Shown here: one piece after another, positions 7,822-29,009 of the stretch
Layout: each line of letters starts with the position of its first letter
How positions within the stretch are numbered: position 1 is the first letter of the stretch
Virus record (IMG/VR): IMGVR_UViG_2778261083_000005
DNA length: 36,199 nucleotides
Direction: 5' to 3' (one strand)
From: a virus
Lineage: Duplodnaviria > Heunggongvirae > Uroviricota > Caudoviricetes
Notes under the pieces: model-generated
Database searches by the model: none
What the model was told of the DNA's origin: nothing
Seen by the model: only the letters and a program-made list of their open reading frames with translations
Program-made: the position numbers and the translations under genes

Positions 7822-8250
7822 CGTTGGCCCCGCTTCTCTGAATCGCTTTATACCGCCATTCCAGCACTTCGGTCAGCGGCATAACGTCAGTAACGGATGG
7901 CGGCCAGTGAAAGATGGTGGCGATATCTGCCACCAGATCGTCAACCGTCAGGCTGTCGGTAAACCGGCAAGCACCGACTTCTTCAACAAAAAAGTGACAA
8001 CCTCAACCGACATGGCAGTGAGATCTGCCGGGTCCATCTCTGCGATTTCCTGTGCAGTCAGTGCCGGACTGGAGATGCGGGGGATCACGGTCATCATCGC
8101 GTTCACATCCATATCCATAATGGCCTGCAGGCGTGTGCCGCGCAGCGCACCAGACTGCGGTTTACGCAACACAATTTCGGTAATTTCTGTTTTACCGCGC
8201 ATGATAGGAGTATCCAGTTGGATGGTCTTTTCAGTCTGCTTATCGCTCAT
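7814..8250 (-). CDS. gpE+E' fusion produced by programmed -1 ribosomal frameshift
   Basis: Manual translation of the -1 frame after the slippery site T-TTT-TTG (minus strand 7993..7987) gives VEEVGACRFTDSLTVDDLVADIATIFHWPPSVTDVMPLTEVLEWRYKAIQRSGANDE with stop at 7814-7816, overlapping the T start. Confidence 0.6.
7948..8250 (-). CDS. E: Tail assembly chaperone gpE
   Basis: 100-aa ORF, ATG at 8248-8250; contains the TTTTTTG slippery heptamer near its 3' end. Confidence 0.8.
   Translation of the reverse strand: MSDKQTEKTIQLDTPIMRGKTEITEIVLRKPQSGALRGTRLQAIMDMDVNAMMTVIPRISSPALTAQEIAEMDPADLTAMSVEVVTFLLKKSVLAGLPTA
7987..7993 (-). other. Slippery heptamer TTTTTTG for the E/E' -1 frameshift
   Basis: Plus-strand caaaaaa at 7987-7993, in frame as T TTT TTG within E. 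Confidence 0.65.
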
Positions 8251-8829: not shown

Positions 8830-10002
8830 TTACGCGCTGACCTGGCTGGCGAAATTCACCAGGTACTGATCGGTGATGCGCTGACGCAGCATCAGGTTTT
8901 CAAGTGGCGGCACTGGCGTGTAGTCGTAGTCGATGGTGAGTTTCCCGGCTTTCAGCGTGTCTTTGTCATTCACCGACTCGTCCAGCCAGCAATCACCACC
9001 AATGAGATAGCCCTGACTGACCAGGCTGCGCATTTTGGCGCGGATACCTTCGATAATGTCGCGGGCCAGCGACGGGTTCAGCGGTTTGTCCACCGCCCAC
9101 ATATGCGCTTCTGCCATCGTGTCCATCAGTACCTGCGCCGTGCGGGTGTAGTTTTCGAAGGCAAAGAGCGGGTCATCACTCAGGCAGCGGGAACCCCAGA
9201 AGCGAAAACCGTCTTTGCGGATAAGCGTGGTGACGTCGTTCTGGTTCAGCAGACCTGCATCTGTTGCCGGGTCCTGCAGATCCCAGAACACATCAGCAGA
9301 AATTCCGGTGACACCGTTCACGCCCACGTTGGACAGGCTTTTGTGCCATCCGGTCTGCTCGTCAATTTTGGCGCGCAGACCAAGCGCACGGGCGGTGGCA
9401 TATGCCGTTGCTTCGGCATTCAGCACCGTGTCCCAGCCAGTAAAGTCAGGCCAGATCAGCATCCCTTCGCGCTGGCTGAAGTTTTCACGGTAAGTGATCG
9501 CCTCCTGTACCGTCTTGCAGCCATATGCTGACAGGTAGGCAAACCCACGCAGGCTTTGCGCCACACTCAGCAACTCAGTAGCAACGGCTTTGTTATCGTG
9601 ACCTGGCACGCCGAGAATGCGCGGTTTAACGCCGAGCTGTGCCTGTGCAGATAACAGGGCTTTCATGCCAGTTTTTTTACCTTCAGCGGTCACTGCGCCG
9701 ATGATATTGGTCGTGGTTTCTTCTTCCGTTTCACCCTGCGGCACACGCACAACAACGGTCACGGGTTTTGCCTGGTCAGCGATGGCATCCAGCGAACGGG
9801 CCAGCGTGCCGGACTCACCCGCTTTACCGCTGGCAGTCAGCACATCAGTGATCAGCACGGGTTTATTAAGAGGAAACATTTTTGCATCGGCATCATCGCC
9901 CGTGCAGACCATACCCACGATGGCGGTGCTCACCGTGGTAATGGATCGGGTGCCTTCGTTGACTTCAACAACGCGCACCCCGTGGTGGTAATCCTGAGCC
10001 AT
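8830..10002 (-). CDS. FI: Contractile tail sheath protein gpFI
   Basis: 390 aa, ATG at 10000-10002; sheath-like sequence and synteny. Confidence 0.9.
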
Positions 10003-10144: not shown

Positions 10145-10420
10145 TCAGGGAGATTCATTACTCTTATTTGCCGGAAATTTTCTATAAATTGTGGAAACAC
10201 CCACATCAAAAATCAGTGCAATACGCTGTCTTGATTCTCCGGCCTCGAGTAAGCGTCCAATCTGTGCCCACTGTTCGATGGTCAACTTAGGACGGCGTCC
10301 ACCTACTCTGCCTTTGGCGCGAGCTGCAGCAAGCCCCGCCCTGGTACGTTCAACTATCAGTTCGCGTTCCATTTCAGCCAGGGCACCCATGACATGAAAA
10401 AAGAAACGGCCCATTGGAGT
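10145..10420 (-). pseudogene. 5'-truncated serine DNA invertase (Gin/Pin/Hin family), C-terminal HTH half only
   Basis: ORF MGRFFFHVMGALAEMERELIVERTRAGLAAARAKGRVGGRRPKLT... matches the C-terminal ~90 aa of Gin/Pin-type invertases; the N-terminal catalytic-serine domain is absent and upstream sequence is unrelated AT-rich DNA. Confidence 0.75.
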
Positions 10421-10574
10421 ACATAGCCTATTAGCATTAGCTCTCCTTTTGTTACCTTGATAAATTTCACTTGTAATGTATATTTATTGGCACCGAAACG
10501 AAGTTAAAACTTAAAAACATTTATCGAACATTTATGTAATAATAACCTTCATAGCATCTATAAGGAAAATAAAA

Positions 10575-11447
10575 ATGGAACAGAGAAAACTATATGCTTA
10601 CTTAAATTTAAACAATCCAATTGTTGCCTGGGAGGTTGCAATAGGAAGAATTGAATCAATCTGTTATAAAAGTGAGTTTGGAGTATCTATTTGGTTCTAC
10701 AATCTAGTAAGAAAATACTTATCAGATAATCACAATGAAAAATTACAAAATGAGTTAGCTCTTGAAAAGGTACGCTCAGACAATTTCAGAGATAAAGTTT
10801 CCCGCCTAACCGGAATATATCTATTCAAAACAAAAGAAATGGCTGAAATAGCAATTGACCGTTGGGGTTTAAATCAAAACTATAAAAACACTATTGCAGA
10901 AATTGATTTTCATGGTTTGAACTTTACAGAGGTGGACTCAGAGTGGATCACTGATTATCTCGGCTCTCCGCTTGAGCAAAATGCGCCCTGGATGCACAAC
11001 TATTGGTCTGGAGTAACTCGCGGGGAAAATCCATTAACCGAAGTTTTGGCCAGTGGCATTGGATATATCAACGATAAAAAAATCAGAAGCATGGCTATCA
11101 AAAAACTATATGAAAAATGGGCTACTTCATCTTTGTTATTTAATGCAGCGATTGCCGGTTTTTCTACTGGAGAAATGGATCAGATATGTCGTGTCAAACC
11201 AGCGATACTACGTGAAGATGATGGGACCCTATCTGGAGAAATTTTTATTGACATGAAAGAATTCAGTCAAAATCAGACAAAAATAGTAGCCGCTTTAAAG
11301 AAAATGTATGACAACGGATATGAGCCTCCTATTGTTGTACCGAATGACCAAAATGCTGCCTTTGCATTACCGGACCTTAAAGATATGTTTTTTAGTACTA
11401 AAAACGAAGTAACTAAAAACCTGTTCAACTTATTACACGCTAGTTAA
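10575..11447 (+). CDS. Hypothetical protein, 290 aa, AT-rich cargo gene at the Z/fun hotspot position
   Basis: Clean ORF with AGGA SD 8 nt upstream of ATG at 10575; opposite strand to the flanking tail operon; markedly AT-rich by eye; followed by a hairpin; no family recognised. Confidence 0.7.
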   Translation: MEQRKLYAYLNLNNPIVAWEVAIGRIESICYKSEFGVSIWFYNLVRKYLSDNHNEKLQNELALEKVRSDNFRDKVSRLTGIYLFKTKEMAEIAIDRWGLNQNYKNTIAEIDFHGLNFTEVDSEWITDYLGSPLEQNAPWMHNYWSGVTRGENPLTEVLASGIGYINDKKIRSMAIKKLYEKWATSSLLFNAAIAGFSTGEMDQICRVKPAILREDDGTLSGEIFIDMKEFSQNQTKIVAALKKMYDNGYEPPIVVPNDQNAAFALPDLKDMFFSTKNEVTKNLFNLLHAS

Positions 11448-11454
11448 CTGCGAA

Positions 11455-11477
11455 CCACCATTTATATAAAATGGTGG
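11455..11477 (+). terminator. Candidate terminator hairpin after the 290-aa gene
   Basis: ccaccattt(11455-11463) / aaatggtgg(11469-11477) inverted repeat followed by a moderately T-rich tract. Confidence 0.45.
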
Positions 11478-11569
11478 CATCTATCTTACTTTTAATAAAA
11501 ACTTATTAGTTTAATTTATATGAGATTGTGGTTGCTACCGAAGCAGAGAAACAACTGCGAATAGACTAG

Positions 11570-11719
11570 GCTAACGAGTTTATAAACAGTAAGCAATGGT
11601 CTGATAAAGCAGCTATTTATCGCCTGAAAGGTGGCGAACTGGAACAATATAATTCGTGGGTGAGTTATCTGGATGCACTAGAACTGGTCGATACACCCCG
11701 TGCTCCAGATATTGAATGA
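11570..11719 (+). pseudogene. 3' remnant of an inverted alternative tail-fibre assembly (tfa-like) gene
   Basis: Open frame ...SDKAAIYRLKGGELEQYNSWVSYLDALELVDTPRAPDIE* ending at TGA 11717-11719, with no start codon; C-terminus resembles Tfa/gpG tails (compare gpG here ...VLDYIDAVTTTDTSTAPDVIWPELSEA); converges on the gpG stop. Confidence 0.45.
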
Positions 11720-11720
11720 C

Positions 11721-12323
11721 CTACGCCTCCGACAGTTCAGGCCAGATGACATCCGGCGCAGTGCTGGTATCCGTTGTCGTCACCGCATCGATGTAATCCA
11801 GCACAGTGTTAAGTCGGGTGGTCTCTGCCTGCATCAGCTTCCGCCCGGCCTGCAATTTCAACTGAATCAGACTAATGGAAGCCATTGCAGCATCAATCAG
11901 TGACTGACGCTGTGCTTCTGCTGCGTCTACTGCGGCGCTATGCTGTGCCTCGGTATCCGTCACCCATTTCTCACCATCCCATTTATCGTATGGCGTTAAC
12001 GGGGCGATAGTGGTTGTATTTTCAGGATAATTACCCGGCACCGTGATTTCTTTTGCTTCTCCTGTTTCGGTGCTATAGATAATTTCACCGCGATGGTCTG
12101 GCATATATTCCCATGAGTTTAAATCTACTGAACGGCAGATTGCATAACCAGCCTTATATGTGCCAGGAGCATCTAAACAGGAATATGCCGGGATACCGAC
12201 ACCAACGGCAAGATATTCATTTGAAGTGGAAATATATTCCCGTGTTTCTCCATCATAGTTATAGACAGTAATATTCCCCGCCTTCGTGGCAATAAGCTCG
12301 CTATTTAATACAGCGTTATCCAT
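11721..12323 (-). CDS. G: Tail fibre assembly protein gpG
   Basis: 200 aa; ATG at 12321-12323 overlaps the H stop (TAATG); Tfa-like C-terminus. Confidence 0.8.
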   Translation of the reverse strand: MDNAVLNSELIATKAGNITVYNYDGETREYISTSNEYLAVGVGIPAYSCLDAPGTYKAGYAICRSVDLNSWEYMPDHRGEIIYSTETGEAKEITVPGNYPENTTTIAPLTPYDKWDGEKWVTDTEAQHSAAVDAAEAQRQSLIDAAMASISLIQLKLQAGRKLMQAETTRLNTVLDYIDAVTTTDTSTAPDVIWPELSEA

Positions 12324-13852
12324 TATGCAGCCCTCACGATAAAGTTAAATGCAATATTTCGCGGACGGGTTTCGCTTCCACCTGTGTTACCAATACTCCC
12401 TCGTGTATGTAGCGTTGGTGATGGAATCAGAGTCCCTCCGACATCAGCAGCATCAAGCCCCCGGCCTTGCGTGTATGCTCTTCTGAAGATTGTCGCCAGT
12501 TCCCATTCCTCTTTTGAATCATACCCATCGTTGGCAACAACAATATGGCGATGTTTTTCCAGCATCCCAGTCTGAATGCTCAATAAAGCACGTCCAGCAT
12601 CAACGCCTCGTCCGTCATCCCAGCCACGAATAAACTCACCACGGAGATCAGGTAGTTTCCCTGATGGATATGCTGTAGCAAGACGGGGATATTTAACCTT
12701 ATCAAAGGCAGCGCCATTGCATTTCAACCAGCCTGTCGGCAGAGTGGCTGAAGGCCACGGAACTGGTACTCCTACAGGTAATGCAGAACCTTCTCCCAAA
12801 CCAAGGTATGCGAGAAGACCAGCAACATCCTTTCCACTCAAATTAGTCAGCGTATTGTCCAGCGGTTGTTTACCTGCCAGTGCATTAAGCATTGTCGTGG
12901 CAAAGTTCGGGTCATTCCCCAGCGCCGCCGCCAGTTCGTTCAGTGTATCCAGTGCCGCAGGTGCAGAACCCACCATTGCCGCAATCGCCGATTTCACAAA
13001 TGCCGTGGTGGCAATCTGTGTATTGTTGACCGACTGTGCCGCAGTCGGTGCGGTTGGCGTTCCGGTGAGTGCCGGACTCGACAGCGGCGCTTTCAGTGCC
13101 AGCGCATTGTTAATGGTGGTACTGAATTTCGGGTCATTGTTTATGGCTGCGGCAATTTCTTTCAGCGTGTCCAGCGTGGCTGGCGCACCATTAATAAGAG
13201 CCGTCAGTGCCGCCTGAACAAACGCGGTGGTCGCAACCTGCGTGGTATTATTCCCCGCCGCTGGCGTTGGCGCTTTGGGTGTCCCGGTAAACGTAGGACT
13301 TTCTTTGGGTGCATACTGTGAATGCGGGTCCGGTGCTGCAAGATGTTTTGCCATCTGATCATCCACGTACACCTTCAGCTCCAGTACCTTATCATCCACA
13401 TACTTGCGGGTTGCCAGCACGACGGCAGGGTCGATTTTCAGGGTGATATAGTCCGTGCTGCTGGTAATCAACACCATGCGCACGGTCTGGGTGCGCCCGC
13501 TGCCTTCAGCCAGTTGCGGCTTATAGCTTTCCGGGCAGTTGCCCACGGCAATCAATGCCCCGGATTCATCAAACAGGCCCACTTCACGTATCCACCAACC
13601 GCCCTCGTTTTCAGGGATCACCTGTTCAGCAATAATCTGGCTGCTGTTTTGCGGGTCGATATAGAGCATATTCAGCGCAGCCCGGCGTTTCTCATTTACC
13701 AGTGCCGTCTGCTTTGCGTCCGGCGTTGGTAATGTTCCGCCGCCATCGCCGACCGCCATATGGGTAATTTTTAACGGCACACCGAGCGCGGCGGCGCTGG
13801 CAAGTTTCGCCGCGCCAATATCCGTCAGCAGGGTATAAAATTTTGTGCTCAT
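12323..13852 (-). CDS. H: Tail fibre protein gpH
   Basis: 509 aa; conserved P2 H-like N-terminus (MSTKFYTLLTDIGAAKLA...), Ala/Thr-rich repeats, variable C-terminus. Confidence 0.85.
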   Translation of the reverse strand: MSTKFYTLLTDIGAAKLASAAALGVPLKITHMAVGDGGGTLPTPDAKQTALVNEKRRAALNMLYIDPQNSSQIIAEQVIPENEGGWWIREVGLFDESGALIAVGNCPESYKPQLAEGSGRTQTVRMVLITSSTDYITLKIDPAVVLATRKYVDDKVLELKVYVDDQMAKHLAAPDPHSQYAPKESPTFTGTPKAPTPAAGNNTTQVATTAFVQAALTALINGAPATLDTLKEIAAAINNDPKFSTTINNALALKAPLSSPALTGTPTAPTAAQSVNNTQIATTAFVKSAIAAMVGSAPAALDTLNELAAALGNDPNFATTMLNALAGKQPLDNTLTNLSGKDVAGLLAYLGLGEGSALPVGVPVPWPSATLPTGWLKCNGAAFDKVKYPRLATAYPSGKLPDLRGEFIRGWDDGRGVDAGRALLSIQTGMLEKHRHIVVANDGYDSKEEWELATIFRRAYTQGRGLDAADVGGTLIPSPTLHTRGSIGNTGGSETRPRNIAFNFIVRAA

Positions 13853-15355: not shown

Positions 15356-15701
15356 TCTCTGCTCCTGTTAATACGGAAAGGGACACAGGCACACCGTTAT
15401 TCCGCCGCCCGGCCAGCTCCACCACCATAGAACCGTCAAAATTGCTGTTGATGGTTATGGAATCCAGCGTCAGCCGTGGCTCCCAGCGACTCAGCGCCAC
15501 ATACACTGCCGACATGACCTGCAGGCGTAATGCCGGATTTTGTGGCTGGTCTATCAGTGCCGACAGCAGGGAACCATATTCACGACGGGCAATGCGGCTA
15601 CCCTGCGGTGTCAGCAGAATGTCCCGCACCGACTGGCGCAGATGGTCAATATCAGTAATGGCTTTACCGCTGGTATTGTTCATCCCGCTATAAAGCGTCA
15701 T
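15342..15701 (-). CDS. W: Baseplate protein gpW
   Basis: 119 aa; ATG overlaps the V stop (ATGA); synteny. Confidence 0.8.
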   Translation of the reverse strand: MTLYSGMNNTSGKAITDIDHLRQSVRDILLTPQGSRIARREYGSLLSALIDQPQNPALRLQVMSAVYVALSRWEPRLTLDSITINSNFDGSMVVELAGRRNNGVPVSLSVLTGAENGSD

Positions 15702-16276
15702 ACCGGGCCTCCGGTTGTGTCGCCGCCTTTCAGGACGCCAGTATGCTGATGTGCATCAACCACGATCCCGTTAGAACTCATCGCTCCGCCGCCCTGGGTA
15801 ACGCCACCATTGATCACAACTTCGCTGTTAATGCGCGTGCGGTCAGCCTCCAGTACAAACTCACTGGTTTTCATGGTGATGTTGTCAGCGGCCTCAATGA
15901 CCATTGATTTGATGCCCCTGACATACCAGCGCCCGGTGGCGGGTTCGTATTCAAACCAGCCACCGTCAGGATGTTCTGTCACGCAGGCGTCCGCCGACGT
16001 CGACGGTGGTGCGAACTGATTCGAATAGACAGCGGGCAGCGCAAAGGCGGTCTCCAGATTGCCGCCCAGACTCAGCAGCACCACCTGCTCACCTTCCGAT
16101 GGTTTCCACCATGTGCGGGCATTACCCGCGCGCAGCGTCAGCCAGTTAATCCAGTTGGTTTCAAGGTCGCCAGTTTTCACCCGACACAGCCAGTTTGCCC
16201 TGTCCACTTCGGTGACTACACCTGAGCGGATCAGGTTGGTGATAAGGCGCATGATTTCGGTTAATTGTGCGTTCAT
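15698..16276 (-). CDS. V: Baseplate spike protein gpV
   Basis: 192 aa; N-terminus aligns by eye with P2 gpV. Confidence 0.85.
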   Translation of the reverse strand: MNAQLTEIMRLITNLIRSGVVTEVDRANWLCRVKTGDLETNWINWLTLRAGNARTWWKPSEGEQVVLLSLGGNLETAFALPAVYSNQFAPPSTSADACVTEHPDGGWFEYEPATGRWYVRGIKSMVIEAADNITMKTSEFVLEADRTRINSEVVINGGVTQGGGAMSSNGIVVDAHQHTGVLKGGDTTGGPV

Positions 16277-16344: not shown

Positions 16345-16791
16345 TCACCCCGCCAGCCATTGCAGAATCATGTCGCGGGTCATTGCCTCAACATCATCAT
16401 TTACACCCAGAAGGCGACGCTCTGCGTAACGGACCTCAGGTCCTTTGCGACTGACGCGATCGCGCAAGCCGTAATGGTGAACACGGGCAATGCGCTGCAC
16501 CTTACCTTCAAACTGCACGCTGGCAGAGTCGGCGCTGGCGGCAGTTTTCAGGTATTTTGTGGTGCGCAGCTTTGCAAACATCTGACGTTTGATGCGCCCC
16601 TTTTTACTGCGTGCTGTTACCCGTCGCGGTTCATAGCTGCTGCCGTCAGGGTTGCGCTGCATCCTGATATTCTGCTGCTGTGTCCGGCGCAGTTCCTGCG
16701 CCAGCTGGCGCATCATGCGGCTTCTGGCGGCTGGTTCCAGATTCGCCAACAAAGCACTCAGCCAGTCGTCCACTTTCTGCAGTTCAGCCAC
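16345..16791 (-). CDS. S: Tail completion protein gpS
   Basis: 148 aa; GTG start; synteny with P2 R-S. Confidence 0.75.
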   Translation of the reverse strand: MAELQKVDDWLSALLANLEPAARSRMMRQLAQELRRTQQQNIRMQRNPDGSSYEPRRVTARSKKGRIKRQMFAKLRTTKYLKTAASADSASVQFEGKVQRIARVHHYGLRDRVSRKGPEVRYAERRLLGVNDDVEAMTRDMILQWLAG

Positions 16792-25103: not shown

Positions 25104-25802
25104 TTATTTGTTTCTTCTTTGTTCACGCCTTGTCTTGGCTTCGATAAGGCGTTGAGGTTCAGTGTAAAGCCGTTCTAAAAAAAGATAGGTAAAATCTTCA
25201 AGATCCTCAGCAGCAGCTTTATCCAAAATACCTTCATGCGCTCCATCATTTCCGTCATCTTTAACGCATTCAGCTAGTTCCCTTAAAGCTTCAGGCAGTA
25301 GATGATTATCAAATAACCACTCCATTCTCAACCCTAGGCTTCTCCTTATTTTTTGCGCAGGCCCTTGCTCCCCATCAGGAAGAAGTCCTTTTGTGGCATA
25401 ATCAAGGCAAAGCCTAAACATGGTTGCTGCTGCATTATAACAACCTATAGCCAAACATTTCGCCCCTTCCTCATATGCACTATTGATATGCTCAGGTAAG
25501 AACTCTGGTGGCTCCTCTACTGCTAAGTCTGCCGGTGATATAGGCCTAACAACCTCTGCAACTTCCTTTAAGCCGAATATTCCACTTTCCCAATTATAGC
25601 TATCTAAAGTTTTATTTTTCGTTAAAGGTCTGCAAAGAAACATTGTCGTTTTATGACACTCTCGGCAAACACAATAGACCTCGTACTCGTATGTTTTACC
25701 CCCGCCCAATGCATTGTAAACCCTAGTGCAATTCAGCCCATTAACATCAAACGCTATTTTTTGTGATCCACATCGTGGACAGTCATCCACTAACATAACC
25801 AT
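25104..25802 (-). CDS. Zinc-ribbon protein with C-terminal DUF4145-like (predicted HEPN-type) domain; candidate abortive-infection/defence protein
   Basis: 232 aa; strong GGGAGGAG SD upstream of ATG at 25800-25802; N-terminal CPRC...CVCRECH zinc ribbon; C-terminal ...ALRELAECVKDDGNDGAHEG... resembling the R...GN.gAH motif of DUF4145; convergent with Q across an 8-bp gap. Confidence 0.7.
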   Translation of the reverse strand: MVMLVDDCPRCGSQKIAFDVNGLNCTRVYNALGGGKTYEYEVYCVCRECHKTTMFLCRPLTKNKTLDSYNWESGIFGLKEVAEVVRPISPADLAVEEPPEFLPEHINSAYEEGAKCLAIGCYNAAATMFRLCLDYATKGLLPDGEQGPAQKIRRSLGLRMEWLFDNHLLPEALRELAECVKDDGNDGAHEGILDKAAAEDLEDFTYLFLERLYTEPQRLIEAKTRREQRRNK

Positions 25803-25912
25803 GTCAATTACTCCTCCCTATGAAAAAAATGAGTTGAAAAATTGAATATTCACGACTTAAAAAGCTAGCCTATTTAACACCATAATTTCATTAATTCAAC
25901 CATGAGCGCGCG

Positions 25913-25931
25913 CTCGTATCCCCGCCACGCC
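25913..25931 (-). other. Candidate cos site (cohesive-end sequence)
   Basis: Minus-strand GGCGTGGCGGGGATACGAG matches the GGCG(A/T)GGCGGGGA core of P2/186 cohesive ends as I recall them (13 of 19 to 186); adjacent 12-bp palindrome gagcgcgcgctc at 25904-25915. Confidence 0.45.
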
Positions 25932-26104
25932 TGCCCGCTTTATGTAGCGGTTTTCATGCAGGCGCATGATCTACGCAAAATCCCACCAGTTCTGGCGTGC
26001 CTTAGCAAAAACGATCCGCAAACGATCATGCGATCTCATGCGGCATAGTCATGCACTTACGGGGGAAGTGAAATCCCGTAACCGAATGACCGCTTGAAAA
26101 ACAA

Positions 26105-26151
26105 AACTCTCGTTTTTATAAAGCACAAAGTCCGCTTTGAGCGAAGCGGAC
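26105..26151 (-). terminator. Candidate intrinsic terminator downstream of the KAP NTPase gene
   Basis: Inverted repeat gtccgctt(26130-26137)/aagcggac(26144-26151); on the minus strand it is followed by TTTGTGCTTTATAAAAAC. Confidence 0.4.
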
Positions 26152-26216
26152 GTTAATAATTTTACTGACTATCCCTAGTACTTCTAATAATATTGCCTAT
26201 GTTAATCAACAAAAAG

Positions 26217-28109
26217 TTAATCAGTTCCCTCAGTAAAGAATTTGATTGCGCTAGTTAGTACATAGTCAATAAAAAACTTTACGTGAAAAACCTGAAAGGA
26301 GTTATTGGCTGCGTTTTGAGTGAAATCTACAGCTATCTCTTTTAGGTTAATCAACCAGTTGTATTCTTCGGTCAGTCTGGTTCTAGCATCCCCATCAGAA
26401 TAACGATTCCGCAAGCTAAATGCCAGTTTCCTCATGAGGACTGGGTCAAGTTTCCTATAGCTTTCAATGAAAACTTCAGGAGGAACCAAGTGTAAAAAAG
26501 GCACGTTATGAAGATTTAACTGCCTATTATTAGAATGACTCAATTCAGATACGAACGATAAGTTTCCCCTTTGCAACTCATCGCTGAACTGCAACGCAAA
26601 TTCCGGAATTGATTCATCAAACCGTTTCTTCTTCGCTATCTCAATATGCTCAATAATGAGTTTGAATTCATCGCTATCCCTGTCAAGAAAACCAAAGCCA
26701 CGCCATGCCCTTAATTCGTTATAATGCGTTTGCGCATATTCCTTATGTATATCTTCAGCTCTAAGTCTATTATAATAATTATTTATATTCTGTTTTGTCT
26801 CATTTATGAGATCATGAACATCATCTGTTGTTAGACCTTCTTTCGCCATGTCCAGCAAAATACTCGCGGTCATCAGGAGTTCACCTAAGGAAGTGATCTT
26901 ACCTGAAAATAGATTATCCTTGGCAATGGCGTACTGCTCATTAAGCATAGTTTCATTAAGTTCTCGATAGTTCCACAAATACTCCCATGCTTGGGCATCG
27001 GTGCTTCTAAAAAATCGCGTAATATCCAACTGAGCGAGAAGTTCACTCGTTACCTTTCCATCACAGATTAGCTCCCTCCAGTACGCACCATCCAGTAACT
27101 TCTCGGTTAATACAGGAGATGAATATTTCTCGGCGATCATGTCATACTTAGTTTTGGTACGCTCTTTACCTAAAAACATACCATAATTAACATTGCTGAT
27201 TGAATCGAAATCCTCGTAGTTAAGGTTCCCTCCCCGGTACTCTATCGAGAAAATTAACAACTGCTGGAAAAATACCCTCATAAAATCGTCGTTGCTGACA
27301 TATTTATTTCCCAAAAGGGAAATGATGCGTTGTACATCAAGAAAGAACTGCCTCAAGTGTCTTAGATTATTATATTTCGCCGACACATAGATGTCTTCTA
27401 TGGCCTGCATATCTTCTTTAAATATATTAGCAACGTGTAAACTGCTAATTACGCCCAAAAAAACATTACAAGCACTATGTAAATCTGACGTTACTTCAAA
27501 TGTTTTACCAACAAGCTTTTCTTTTGTTCTCATATATTCGCTGCTAGATTTCTCATCATCATTATTTATTCGCTTTTCTCTATTGATTATTTCTTCTTCA
27601 TTGGCAACCAAGATCGCTTTGTATCCGTTTACTTCTACAAAGTGGTTTATATATCCAAATAAAATTGGTAAATCTATACCAGCTCTCTCGATATCATCAA
27701 AGACCAGCACAAAACCATCTGGTTTTCTACTAAAATCGTTAAGATTAATGGTGGGAACATTGGTATTGACATCAACGTCAGATTTATTATCGCCATTGAG
27801 ATCGATCTTGAAAGTAGCCTTAAGCGTATTTTTTAGTACATTTGCACCAAAGATAAGGGCTTTGTTTGATAGGACAGGATGAAGTTGACGATAGAACTCA
27901 TCTTCAATCTGCTTAATAGAGTTGACGCCATACAAACTCACTTTTAGAAATTTAAACTCTGAATTCTTCTGCTTATATTCTTCAAGAACTTGTTCAATGA
28001 ACCAAGTTTTACCTGATCCCCAAGCACCTTTAAGCATAATGGCGTATTGAGGTTCAGTTGTAAGGCTAAGGTAATATTCTATATAGTCTTTGATGTACGT
28101 ATTGTTCAT
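26217..28109 (-). CDS. KAP-family P-loop NTPase (PifA-like); candidate phage-exclusion protein
   Basis: ATG at 28107-28109 preferred (ORF-track start at 28160 is TTG); Walker A GAWGSGKT and Walker B-like VLVFDDIER in the N-terminal third; long helical C-terminal region; AT-rich; between tum/DinI module and cos. Confidence 0.75.
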   Translation of the reverse strand: MNNTYIKDYIEYYLSLTTEPQYAIMLKGAWGSGKTWFIEQVLEEYKQKNSEFKFLKVSLYGVNSIKQIEDEFYRQLHPVLSNKALIFGANVLKNTLKATFKIDLNGDNKSDVDVNTNVPTINLNDFSRKPDGFVLVFDDIERAGIDLPILFGYINHFVEVNGYKAILVANEEEIINREKRINNDDEKSSSEYMRTKEKLVGKTFEVTSDLHSACNVFLGVISSLHVANIFKEDMQAIEDIYVSAKYNNLRHLRQFFLDVQRIISLLGNKYVSNDDFMRVFFQQLLIFSIEYRGGNLNYEDFDSISNVNYGMFLGKERTKTKYDMIAEKYSSPVLTEKLLDGAYWRELICDGKVTSELLAQLDITRFFRSTDAQAWEYLWNYRELNETMLNEQYAIAKDNLFSGKITSLGELLMTASILLDMAKEGLTTDDVHDLINETKQNINNYYNRLRAEDIHKEYAQTHYNELRAWRGFGFLDRDSDEFKLIIEHIEIAKKKRFDESIPEFALQFSDELQRGNLSFVSELSHSNNRQLNLHNVPFLHLVPPEVFIESYRKLDPVLMRKLAFSLRNRYSDGDARTRLTEEYNWLINLKEIAVDFTQNAANNSFQVFHVKFFIDYVLTSAIKFFTEGTD

Positions 28110-28423
28110 TTTTAGTCCATTTTGATAAAATACATAAACATAGATGGTAAGTAGAGCCAAAGGCCAACTATGGAAAATTCAATCGGTAGTGTACATTGTA
28201 AGGTTATTATTAGTAAATTTTATAGAAATGCCCATAATCTTACAAAATTCAGATTATCCGTTGCGAATTAGTCTGCCATTCGTTAATTAACAAAAGTTAG
28301 CAGAAGAAACGTTTGCATCTTGCACAAAGCAGACGATCATTTATCAAAATGACCTTACACCTTATTTCACTCGTTGCCCAAACTAGCCCCCATCAGAATG
28401 AATCCTCCTGGGGGCAACGTTTC

Positions 28424-28657
28424 TTAATGCAGCCAGCTGTCGTCTTCCCACACCTTCTGCATAATTTTCATCACTTGTTTTCTTTCTTCGTCCAGTTGCA
28501 GTCCGGTCAGTTCCACACCGTTAGAGCTACCTTTGCGGATACGAATTACCGTTTTGGGATACAGGGGGCGCAGATTGCGGTAAAGCTCGGATTCAAGGGC
28601 GTCCAGTGTAGACTGGCTAATCTTCTGCTCTTTATCGATCATTATTTCAATGCGCAT
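28424..28657 (-). CDS. DinI-family protein (SOS-inducible; Tum/DinI-like)
   Basis: 77 aa from ATG at 28655-28657 with GAGGTGA SD; MRIEIMIDK...LDALESEL...KQVMKIMQKVWEDDSWL aligns by eye with E. coli DinI. Confidence 0.75.
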   Translation of the reverse strand: MRIEIMIDKEQKISQSTLDALESELYRNLRPLYPKTVIRIRKGSSNGVELTGLQLDEERKQVMKIMQKVWEDDSWLH

Positions 28658-28667
28658 AAAAGTCACC

Positions 28668-28856
28668 TCAGCTGATGACATCCATTGAGCGGTTGTATTC
28701 GTGGCTTCTGATTTTTGCCATGAGTTCATCAGTCAATTCAGAAACCCACTGCAGAGCCAGCCCCTTCTCTTCATCACTACACTCACTAGCCGCTACAAGC
28801 TTAAGAAAAAAATCAATGCGCTGGAGCTTCAAAGACTCCAAAAAATAGTCCTGCAT
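28668..28856 (-). CDS. Small hypothetical protein (62 aa), first gene of the LexA-controlled operon; possible antirepressor component
   Basis: ATG at 28854-28856 with AGGAGG SD 6 nt upstream; stop immediately precedes the DinI-like RBS; downstream of the LexA box. Confidence 0.55.
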   Translation of the reverse strand: MQDYFLESLKLQRIDFFLKLVAASECSDEEKGLALQWVSELTDELMAKIRSHEYNRSMDVIS

Positions 28857-28897
28857 CTTTCCTCCTATGACACCACACGCAATGCTGTACGTATAAC

Positions 28898-28917
28898 CAC
28901 TGTTTATATTTACAGTA
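28898..28917 (-). promoter_or_regulatory. LexA box (SOS operator) overlapping the -10 of the promoter for the small ORF/DinI-like operon
   Basis: Minus-strand TACTGTAAATATAAACAGTG = CTGT-N8-ACAG with AT-rich spacer; TTTACA (-35-like) and TATACT (-10-like) around it. Confidence 0.6.
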
Positions 28918-29009
28918 TATAATAATCTTACTGATGTAAAACGTTTTTTTACGTTCATCAGCCTGATATGCCTGGTATTATTAAGAGCACGAATTGTTAA
29001 CCCGCGTAA

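Follow-up and report, generated by a model that had tools for sequence, protein, structure and literature searches.

A cargo gene at the fun(Z) slot of a P2-type prophage encodes a two-domain protein with a predicted BC2332/DUF2441-like fold and is a candidate solo anti-phage effector

What is the function of a short, AT-rich gene that lies antisense within the tail region of a P2-type prophage, and how did it come to occupy that position? The window, that is, the whole stretch of 36,199 nucleotides analyzed here (IMG/VR record IMGVR_UViG_2778261083_000005), contains a complete P2-type prophage with the genes D, U, T, E, FII, FI, G, H, I, J, W, V, S and R, together with capsid genes, terminase, portal, gpA, CI and integrase. 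The gene in question (10575..11447, + strand; hereafter the cargo gene) is located between the sheath gene FI (8830-10002, -) and the tail-fibre assembly gene G (11721-12323, -), antisense to the late tail operon; this position is the fun(Z) slot, or P2 hotspot #2. Vassallo et al. described this slot as a second defence-enriched locus of P2-like prophages (PMC9519451), and single-gene occupants of the P2 hotspots are cassettes expressed from the lysogen (PMC9519451; PMC9122126). Identical and near-identical copies of the product (WP_059331867.1, WP_021513022.1) are labelled "hypothetical protein" in RefSeq.

The open reading frame is a genuine, acquired gene under selection. It starts with ATG and encodes 290 amino acids, with the stop codon included in the coordinates; at 36% GC, where stops make up about 7% per codon, a simple calculation places the chance of a 290-codon frame at about 1e-9. 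A large protein collection contains 104 homologues of the protein, and dN/dS over the whole gene is 0.15-0.18 in comparisons with close Escherichia alleles and 0.10 in that with a 60%-identical Citrobacter copy. The gene has a GC content of 0.36 and the block 10423-11560 one of 0.34, compared with 0.56 in the flanking T-to-FI tail module and 0.54 from G to J. The AT-rich cargo block, of approximate extent 10438..11529 (GC 0.34), runs from the start codon of an invertase pseudogene to the remnant of an inverted tail-fibre assembly gene, and homology to the invertase region of E. coli W and C4-type genomes stops at its edge. A Shine-Dalgarno sequence read from the DNA (AAGGA, 10562..10566, +) precedes the ATG by 8 nt, and a terminator-like hairpin (11455..11477, +) with a 9-bp stem and a 5-nt loop begins 8 nt 3′ of the stop codon (dG -11.8 kcal/mol, z -2.7), followed by a tail that is T-rich but imperfect. 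The promoter candidate TTGATA-16-TATATT (10457..10484, +) matches the sigma-70 pattern at 10 of 12 positions and is weakly supported, sigma-70-like sites being no commoner in the region than in shuffled sequence. No Rfam match was obtained near the gene, and no meaningful inverted repeats surround it. The first-pass annotation, which was made from the letters of the sequence, had described a well-formed frame with a good ribosome-binding site and its own hairpin, as well as AT-rich acquired cargo on the strand opposite to FI and G in the fun(Z) slot; it proves exact in its coordinates and sound on each of these points.

To define what occupied the slot before, E. coli W served as the reference. 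In about 890 of the 5,426 complete E. coli genomes, the match to the query is confined to its first 423 bases, corresponding to the sheath end and the 3′ part of the invertase; in the listed genomes of this set, as in E. coli W, the sheath gene is followed by an intact serine invertase of 189 aa. In E. coli W, the order continues with an inverted fibre tip (Sv′), an inverted assembly gene (tfa′), tfa and H, an arrangement that constitutes a Mu-G-like fibre inversion cassette. The window has lost Sv′ and the N-terminal part of tfa′, and the cargo gene occupies their place. The C-terminal part of tfa′ persists as a remnant (11530..11719, +), recognized by translation, which carries an in-frame stop and is annotated as a pseudogene by RefSeq in locus L001. 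The serine invertase is likewise a pseudogene (10145..10437, -), comprising the start codon and six codons (10420-10437), an internal deletion, a frameshift and an 89-aa C-terminal remnant that represents the end of the Resolvase domain and HTH_7. What destroyed it were internal deletions; the insert did not truncate it. C4-type E. coli genomes, which carry the same cargo gene and about 106 bp more of the invertase, are an intermediate stage of its loss, and the extra deletion of the window relative to them is flanked by GTAC microhomology. A single crossover site (TTCTCGCATACCTTGGTTTGGGAGAA, 12791..12816, -), compared with the sites of E. coli W and Citrobacter, survives inside the fibre gene H. 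Since its partner is gone and the invertase is a pseudogene, the fibre is locked to one tip. The reference cassette of E. coli W (L003, 7068-8245) is itself interrupted by an IS3-family element, so the slot is evidently prone to several kinds of insertion.

The cargo gene is carried by 7 of 5,426 complete E. coli genomes, in every case at the fun(Z) slot, and a 100%-identical copy is present in Escherichia sp. MOD1-EC7003. In Citrobacter sedlakii, the gene has an intact invertase on one side and, on the other, an intact crossover site that precedes a fibre-tip reading frame. Because this lineage retains the gene together with both elements of the switch, the likely history, as judged from the sequence comparison, is an insertion beside the invertase followed by switch-destroying deletions in the Escherichia lineage. 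The first-pass annotation had proposed that the gene replaced the inverted half of a tail-fibre shufflon and had called for a survey of the slot in related prophages. That survey finds the invertase and fibre cassette in E. coli W, and the same gene beside an intact shufflon in Citrobacter; replacement thus describes the window itself, but not the death of the invertase, which came through internal deletions, nor the Citrobacter arrangement. All three Citrobacter contigs with the cargo gene end approximately 90-190 bp past it, just inside the fibre-tip frame (L004, 8873-9061), which is the pattern expected if an invertible segment present in both orientations broke the assembly.

The family to which the protein belongs is rare and patchy. 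An exhaustive profile search recovered 512 representatives at 50% identity, 340 of them at E<=1e-10, nearly all of 270-310 aa and matching over both domains of the protein. A pattern scan of about 100,000 species genomes found members in 13, which belong to Gamma-, Beta- and Deltaproteobacteria, Campylobacteraceae and a cyanobacterium; five IMG/VR contigs also carry the pattern. The GC content is about 36% in all five enterobacterial copies measured. By tblastn against 50,697 phage genomes, no match to the protein was obtained at E<=0.01. Members occupy P2 hotspot #2 in Escherichia and Citrobacter and hotspot #1 (portal/ogr to gpA) in Aeromonas, with two unknown genes, and in Moritella, adjoining a PLD/NgoFVII-type nuclease. 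Others lie in degraded P2 elements, namely in Pantoea, in locus L016, where the member adjoins PDC-M38A/B, and in locus L018, whose remnant also holds an ApeA-like gene. Further copies are found at the edge of an HP1-like prophage in Yersinia, in small chromosomal islets, and in Vibrio cincinnatiensis as an integron cassette among ParE/Phd cassettes, where attC-type repeats (7838-7908 and 8867-8912) flank this open reading frame only.

Across the loci examined, the cargo gene has no conserved neighbour, and its flanks are not conserved between Escherichia and Citrobacter. No conserved antitoxin gene or RNA was found beside it, so the gene does not qualify as part of a toxin-antitoxin pair. With no shared neighbour, no Rfam RNA, unconserved flanks and a Vibrio cassette of one open reading frame, it is a self-sufficient mobile unit. 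The family recurs in the defence hotspots #1 and #2, beside PDC-M38 and in one P2 remnant together with an ApeA-like gene, a recurrence that is anecdotal. The window itself holds three genes of GC 0.36-0.42 in hotspot #1, between portal and gpA (25104-28958): a 647-aa KAP-family NTPase (26217-28160, -) that matches the PADLOC candidate PDC-S49 (E 2e-160), a 232-aa DUF4145 protein (25104-25802, -) with weak similarity to PD-T7-4 (E 1e-6), and a DinI-like gene (28424-28729, -).

Several further observations came from the surrounding loci. In locus L037 (5782-6582, -), a gene for a 266-aa TIR_2-domain protein is inserted between the tail genes S and V, and in locus L018 (3213-4964, +) the same junction holds an ApeA-like protein (PADLOC E 1.7e-9), which suggests a third cargo slot of P2-like prophages; the S/V junction of the window, with V at 15698-16276 and S at 16345-16791, carries no insert. 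On chromosome 2 of Vibrio cincinnatiensis, inside the attC-cassette region, seven 28-nt repeats (TTTCTAAGCTGCCTATGCGGCAGTGAAC) with an exact 60-nt period (L010, 834-1248) look like a type I-F-like CRISPR array. In the Aeromonas P2-like prophage (L032, 14246-14861), a SNIPE/T5orf172/MUG113-domain protein directly follows the CI-like repressor and is possibly another defence or nuclease cargo gene. Some PADLOC neighbours were set aside: the ClpB-like match in L030 reflects generic ATPase similarity; the mad3-like match in L021, with its two-stretch alignment and aggregated ABC_tran matches, looks like an ordinary ABC ATPase; and the Hachiman match of the pooled neighbour scan could be assigned to no locus, L031 having been guessed from gene sizes only.

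Sequence searches gave little information on the protein itself. It has no match in Pfam or NCBIfam, no family of PADLOC-DB v2.0.0 (known and candidate defence proteins) matches it at E<=1, and PHROGs returned two weak matches only, to the uncharacterized families phrog_5663 and phrog_9842 over residues 40-160. Using the family alignment, AlphaFold2 predicts a compact two-domain globule (pLDDT 94.1, pTM 0.90). In this model, the N-terminal domain (aa 1-166; 10575..11072, +) adopts a BC2332/DUF2441-like fold, putatively of the ADP-ribosyltransferase (ART) superfamily, and its core resembles the BC2332 structure in three dimensions, while the variable C-terminal alpha/beta domain (aa 167-290; 11073..11444, +) matches neither fold nor family. 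Conservation, as read from a 58-sequence family alignment, is very uneven. The N-domain of about 165 aa is strongly conserved and carries almost all invariant residues, many of them charged; 17 are invariant (W19, E20, G24, R25, S38, E60, E64, R67, R77, F84, D121, S122, W139, Y143, E156, G161 and G163). The majority-residue fraction is 0.62 in the N-domain versus 0.44 in the C-domain, and dN/dS among close alleles is 0.02-0.04 versus 0.5-0.57, the latter range derived from only 9-11 non-synonymous changes. The N-domain is therefore nearly frozen and the C-domain relaxed or diversifying; the latter is retained in nearly all family members. Neither a secretion signal nor a toxin-delivery domain is present. 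The first-pass annotation had recognized no family in the protein and had suggested a fold search on an AlphaFold model; that search leads to the BC2332-like fold, and the protein is in fact one member of a conserved family with about 500 representatives. The same annotation had allowed for homology to a structural or tail-fibre protein, of which none was found among fibre and chaperone families, or to a characterized family, which does not apply since BC2332/DUF2441 is without known function.

DUF2441 (PF10386), which Pfam places in the ART clan (PMC7955679), is represented structurally by BC2332 of Bacillus cereus (PDB 2aua); SCOP classifies BC2332-like proteins as family d.166.1.6 of the ADP-ribosylation superfamily (PMC3000352). 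In a profile search of PDB sequences, 2aua was the sole match (E=0.2). The window protein has no match to PF10386 at E<=1, and 28 of 58 relatives match DUF2441 weakly, the best at 3.2e-5, mostly over profile positions 48-91 of 141, which correspond to the E..LE..R...P..SRL..hY segment. Ten relatives scanned singly against PF10386 gave 13.6-19.4 bits or no match. As all scores fall below the 25-bit gathering threshold, the cargo family is, on profile comparison, a sister family of DUF2441, not a member; the two differ further in that identity is 14-19% and that proteins of the cargo family continue into an additional conserved C-terminal domain of about 125 aa. The BC2332 match provides a fold and no activity. 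By eye, Y82 (in G-[VI]-Y-F-F, followed by a helix) and E156 (at a strand start) look like the Tyr and Glu of H-Y-E ARTs; the position of the ART His would fall on the near-invariant Ala8. A mapping of the H-Y-E residues on PARP1 ("LWHGS...GLRI...GKGIYFA" against "LYAYL...GRI...G[VI]YFF") found no support: hhalign, when given the family's profile and the PARP1 catalytic domain, whose sequence was verified as exact, produced no alignment (probability 0.2%). The assignment of Y82 and E156 as catalytic residues is thus an unverified visual lead only; the canonical His seems to be absent, and NAD+ or ADP-ribose chemistry is putative. None of the names DUF2441, PF10386, BC2332, WP_059331867.1 or WP_021513022.1 is mentioned in the defence papers searched, including the Rousset and Vassallo supplements.

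The reading we favour, tentatively and at somewhat less than even probability, is that of a solo anti-phage effector expressed in the lysogen, which would combine an ART-like catalytic module with a variable specificity or regulatory domain. The P2-type prophage would express a stand-alone "moron" from its own promoter, and the product would most likely shield the lysogen from other phages. The cytoplasmic, two-domain protein would use NAD+ through its N-terminal ART-superfamily module, either for the ADP-ribosylation of a macromolecule of phage or host origin or in a reaction that consumes the cofactor, while the fast-evolving C-domain may set specificity or keep the enzyme inactive until an infection cue arrives. 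An anti-phage or superinfection-exclusion function, as proposed in the first-pass annotation, is plausible because the family occurs in both P2 hotspots, moves as an integron cassette, and neighbours the PDC-M38, PLD-nuclease and KAP-NTPase candidates. This reading is further favoured by the frozen N-domain and variable C-domain, a combination typical of effector-plus-recognition immune proteins, by the moron layout antisense to the late tail operon with a ribosome-binding site and hairpin, and by the defence candidates in hotspot #1 of the same prophage, among them the KAP NTPase that matches PDC-S49 (2e-160). A bolder version, in which an uncatalogued, antitoxin-less, one-protein effector uses a divergent ART scaffold lacking the canonical His, is restrained by its own fast-evolving C-domain and blocks heterologous phages through a modification chemistry or a target new to bacterial immunity, is rather unlikely.

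Comparison with known systems places the protein among several partial parallels. DarT, of the DarTG toxin-antitoxin defence system, is a single-stranded-DNA thymidine ADP-ribosyltransferase with canonical catalytic residues. It depends on the macrodomain antitoxin DarG, whereas the cargo gene is solo; the two proteins share no sequence similarity and no PADLOC match, and the likeness consists in an ART-fold anti-phage effector, a role that is putative for the cargo protein. CmdT of CmdTAC is an mRNA ADP-ribosyltransferase (PMC11618068, PMC9519451). Here the likeness would be that of an ART-like anti-phage effector in E. coli mobile elements; CmdT, however, acts in a three-part toxin-antitoxin-chaperone system, while the cargo gene has neither partner genes nor a PADLOC match. 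By analogy, the cargo protein may work like DarT or CmdT. P2 fun(Z), old, tin, Rst_DUF4238 and the PD-T4/PD-T7 systems have their slot or slots and the moron logic in common with the cargo gene, but no detectable sequence relationship or PADLOC match; for P2 Fun(Z), no homology was found by tblastn at E<=0.01 in 50,697 phage records presumed to include P2. T4 Alt, ModA and ModB are phage-borne ARTs modifying host targets; they are of the R-S-E class, serve the lytic programme of a virulent phage and show no similarity to the cargo protein, whose genomic context points to expression in the lysogen. In the predicted model, BC2332/DUF2441 is structurally the closest known system.

Competing explanations concern either the chemistry or the purpose of the gene. 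The protein could act in defence or exclusion while its ART-like domain does not use NAD+, in which case it would be a pseudo-enzyme with a phage protein or nucleic acid as its binding partner, or would catalyse another reaction that arose on the ART scaffold. We regard this as distinctly unlikely, given that the 17 invariant residues and the N-domain dN/dS of 0.02-0.04 fit an active site better than a binding surface, since such surfaces usually change along with their targets, and that E156 and Y82 resemble, as a visual lead only, the Glu and Tyr of ARTs. Phage-encoded ARTs that reprogram the host are well known, and N-domain-only relatives exist in virulent or temperate phages (phrog_5663, phrog_9842 and two BFVD matches), which would suit a role in the lytic cycle, such as host takeover or anti-defence modification of host proteins in the manner of T4 Alt, ModA and ModB. 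Such a role is nonetheless improbable for a gene that runs antisense to the late operon with its own signals, occurs outside phages in an integron cassette and chromosomal islets, has no tblastn copy in the 50,697 phage genomes, and occupies slots known for lysogen-expressed exclusion genes (PMC9519451).

If the gene were a selfish or addictive toxin, or cargo that hitch-hikes neutrally, it would bring no anti-phage benefit; the Vibrio copy among ParE/Phd cassettes and the rarity of the family (7 of 5,426 E. coli genomes, 13 of about 100,000 species) are in keeping with such a role. ART-fold toxins are, moreover, common in toxin-antitoxin and polymorphic-toxin systems. Against this stand the absence of an antitoxin-sized conserved partner or RNA, purifying selection across Escherichia and Citrobacter that is strong, unlike that on neutral cargo, and a compact two-domain model free of secretion signal or toxin-delivery domain, so that we consider this role quite improbable. 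The ART fold also includes enzymes outside conflict, e.g. Tpt1/KptA, and some loci have housekeeping neighbours only; an accessory metabolic or nucleic-acid-repair enzyme, such as a Tpt1-like phosphotransferase or one of NAD-related salvage, is nevertheless very improbable, because the patchy phyletic spread, the GC content of about 36% in the hosts examined and the repeated placement in prophage hotspots and integrons mark a mobile accessory gene. Least credible is a structural or assembly factor of the tail fibre, which the adjoining fibre and fibre-assembly genes might suggest: the protein is similar to no fibre or chaperone family, its gene lies on the opposite strand, and the family recurs in the portal-to-gpA hotspot, integron cassettes and non-phage islets. 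The context survey effectively refutes a fibre-related role.

P2 hotspots are already known for many uncharacterized genes, and ART-fold conflict effectors are a known kind of protein. The structure of BC2332 has been available since 2005; if the protein is defensive, the BC2332/DUF2441 branch of the ART superfamily, so far an orphan, would gain a first function. At the level of the locus, hotspot cargo can lock a phage host-range switch, and variability of the tail fibre is here traded for a gene of presumed benefit to the lysogen. A solo ART-fold effector without an antitoxin also raises the question of how an enzyme that may be toxic is kept silent and then triggered; the contrast of a frozen N-domain with a variable C-domain offers a testable answer. 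If defensive, the gene would be a compact, one-gene addition to the immune repertoire of E. coli and the Enterobacterales.
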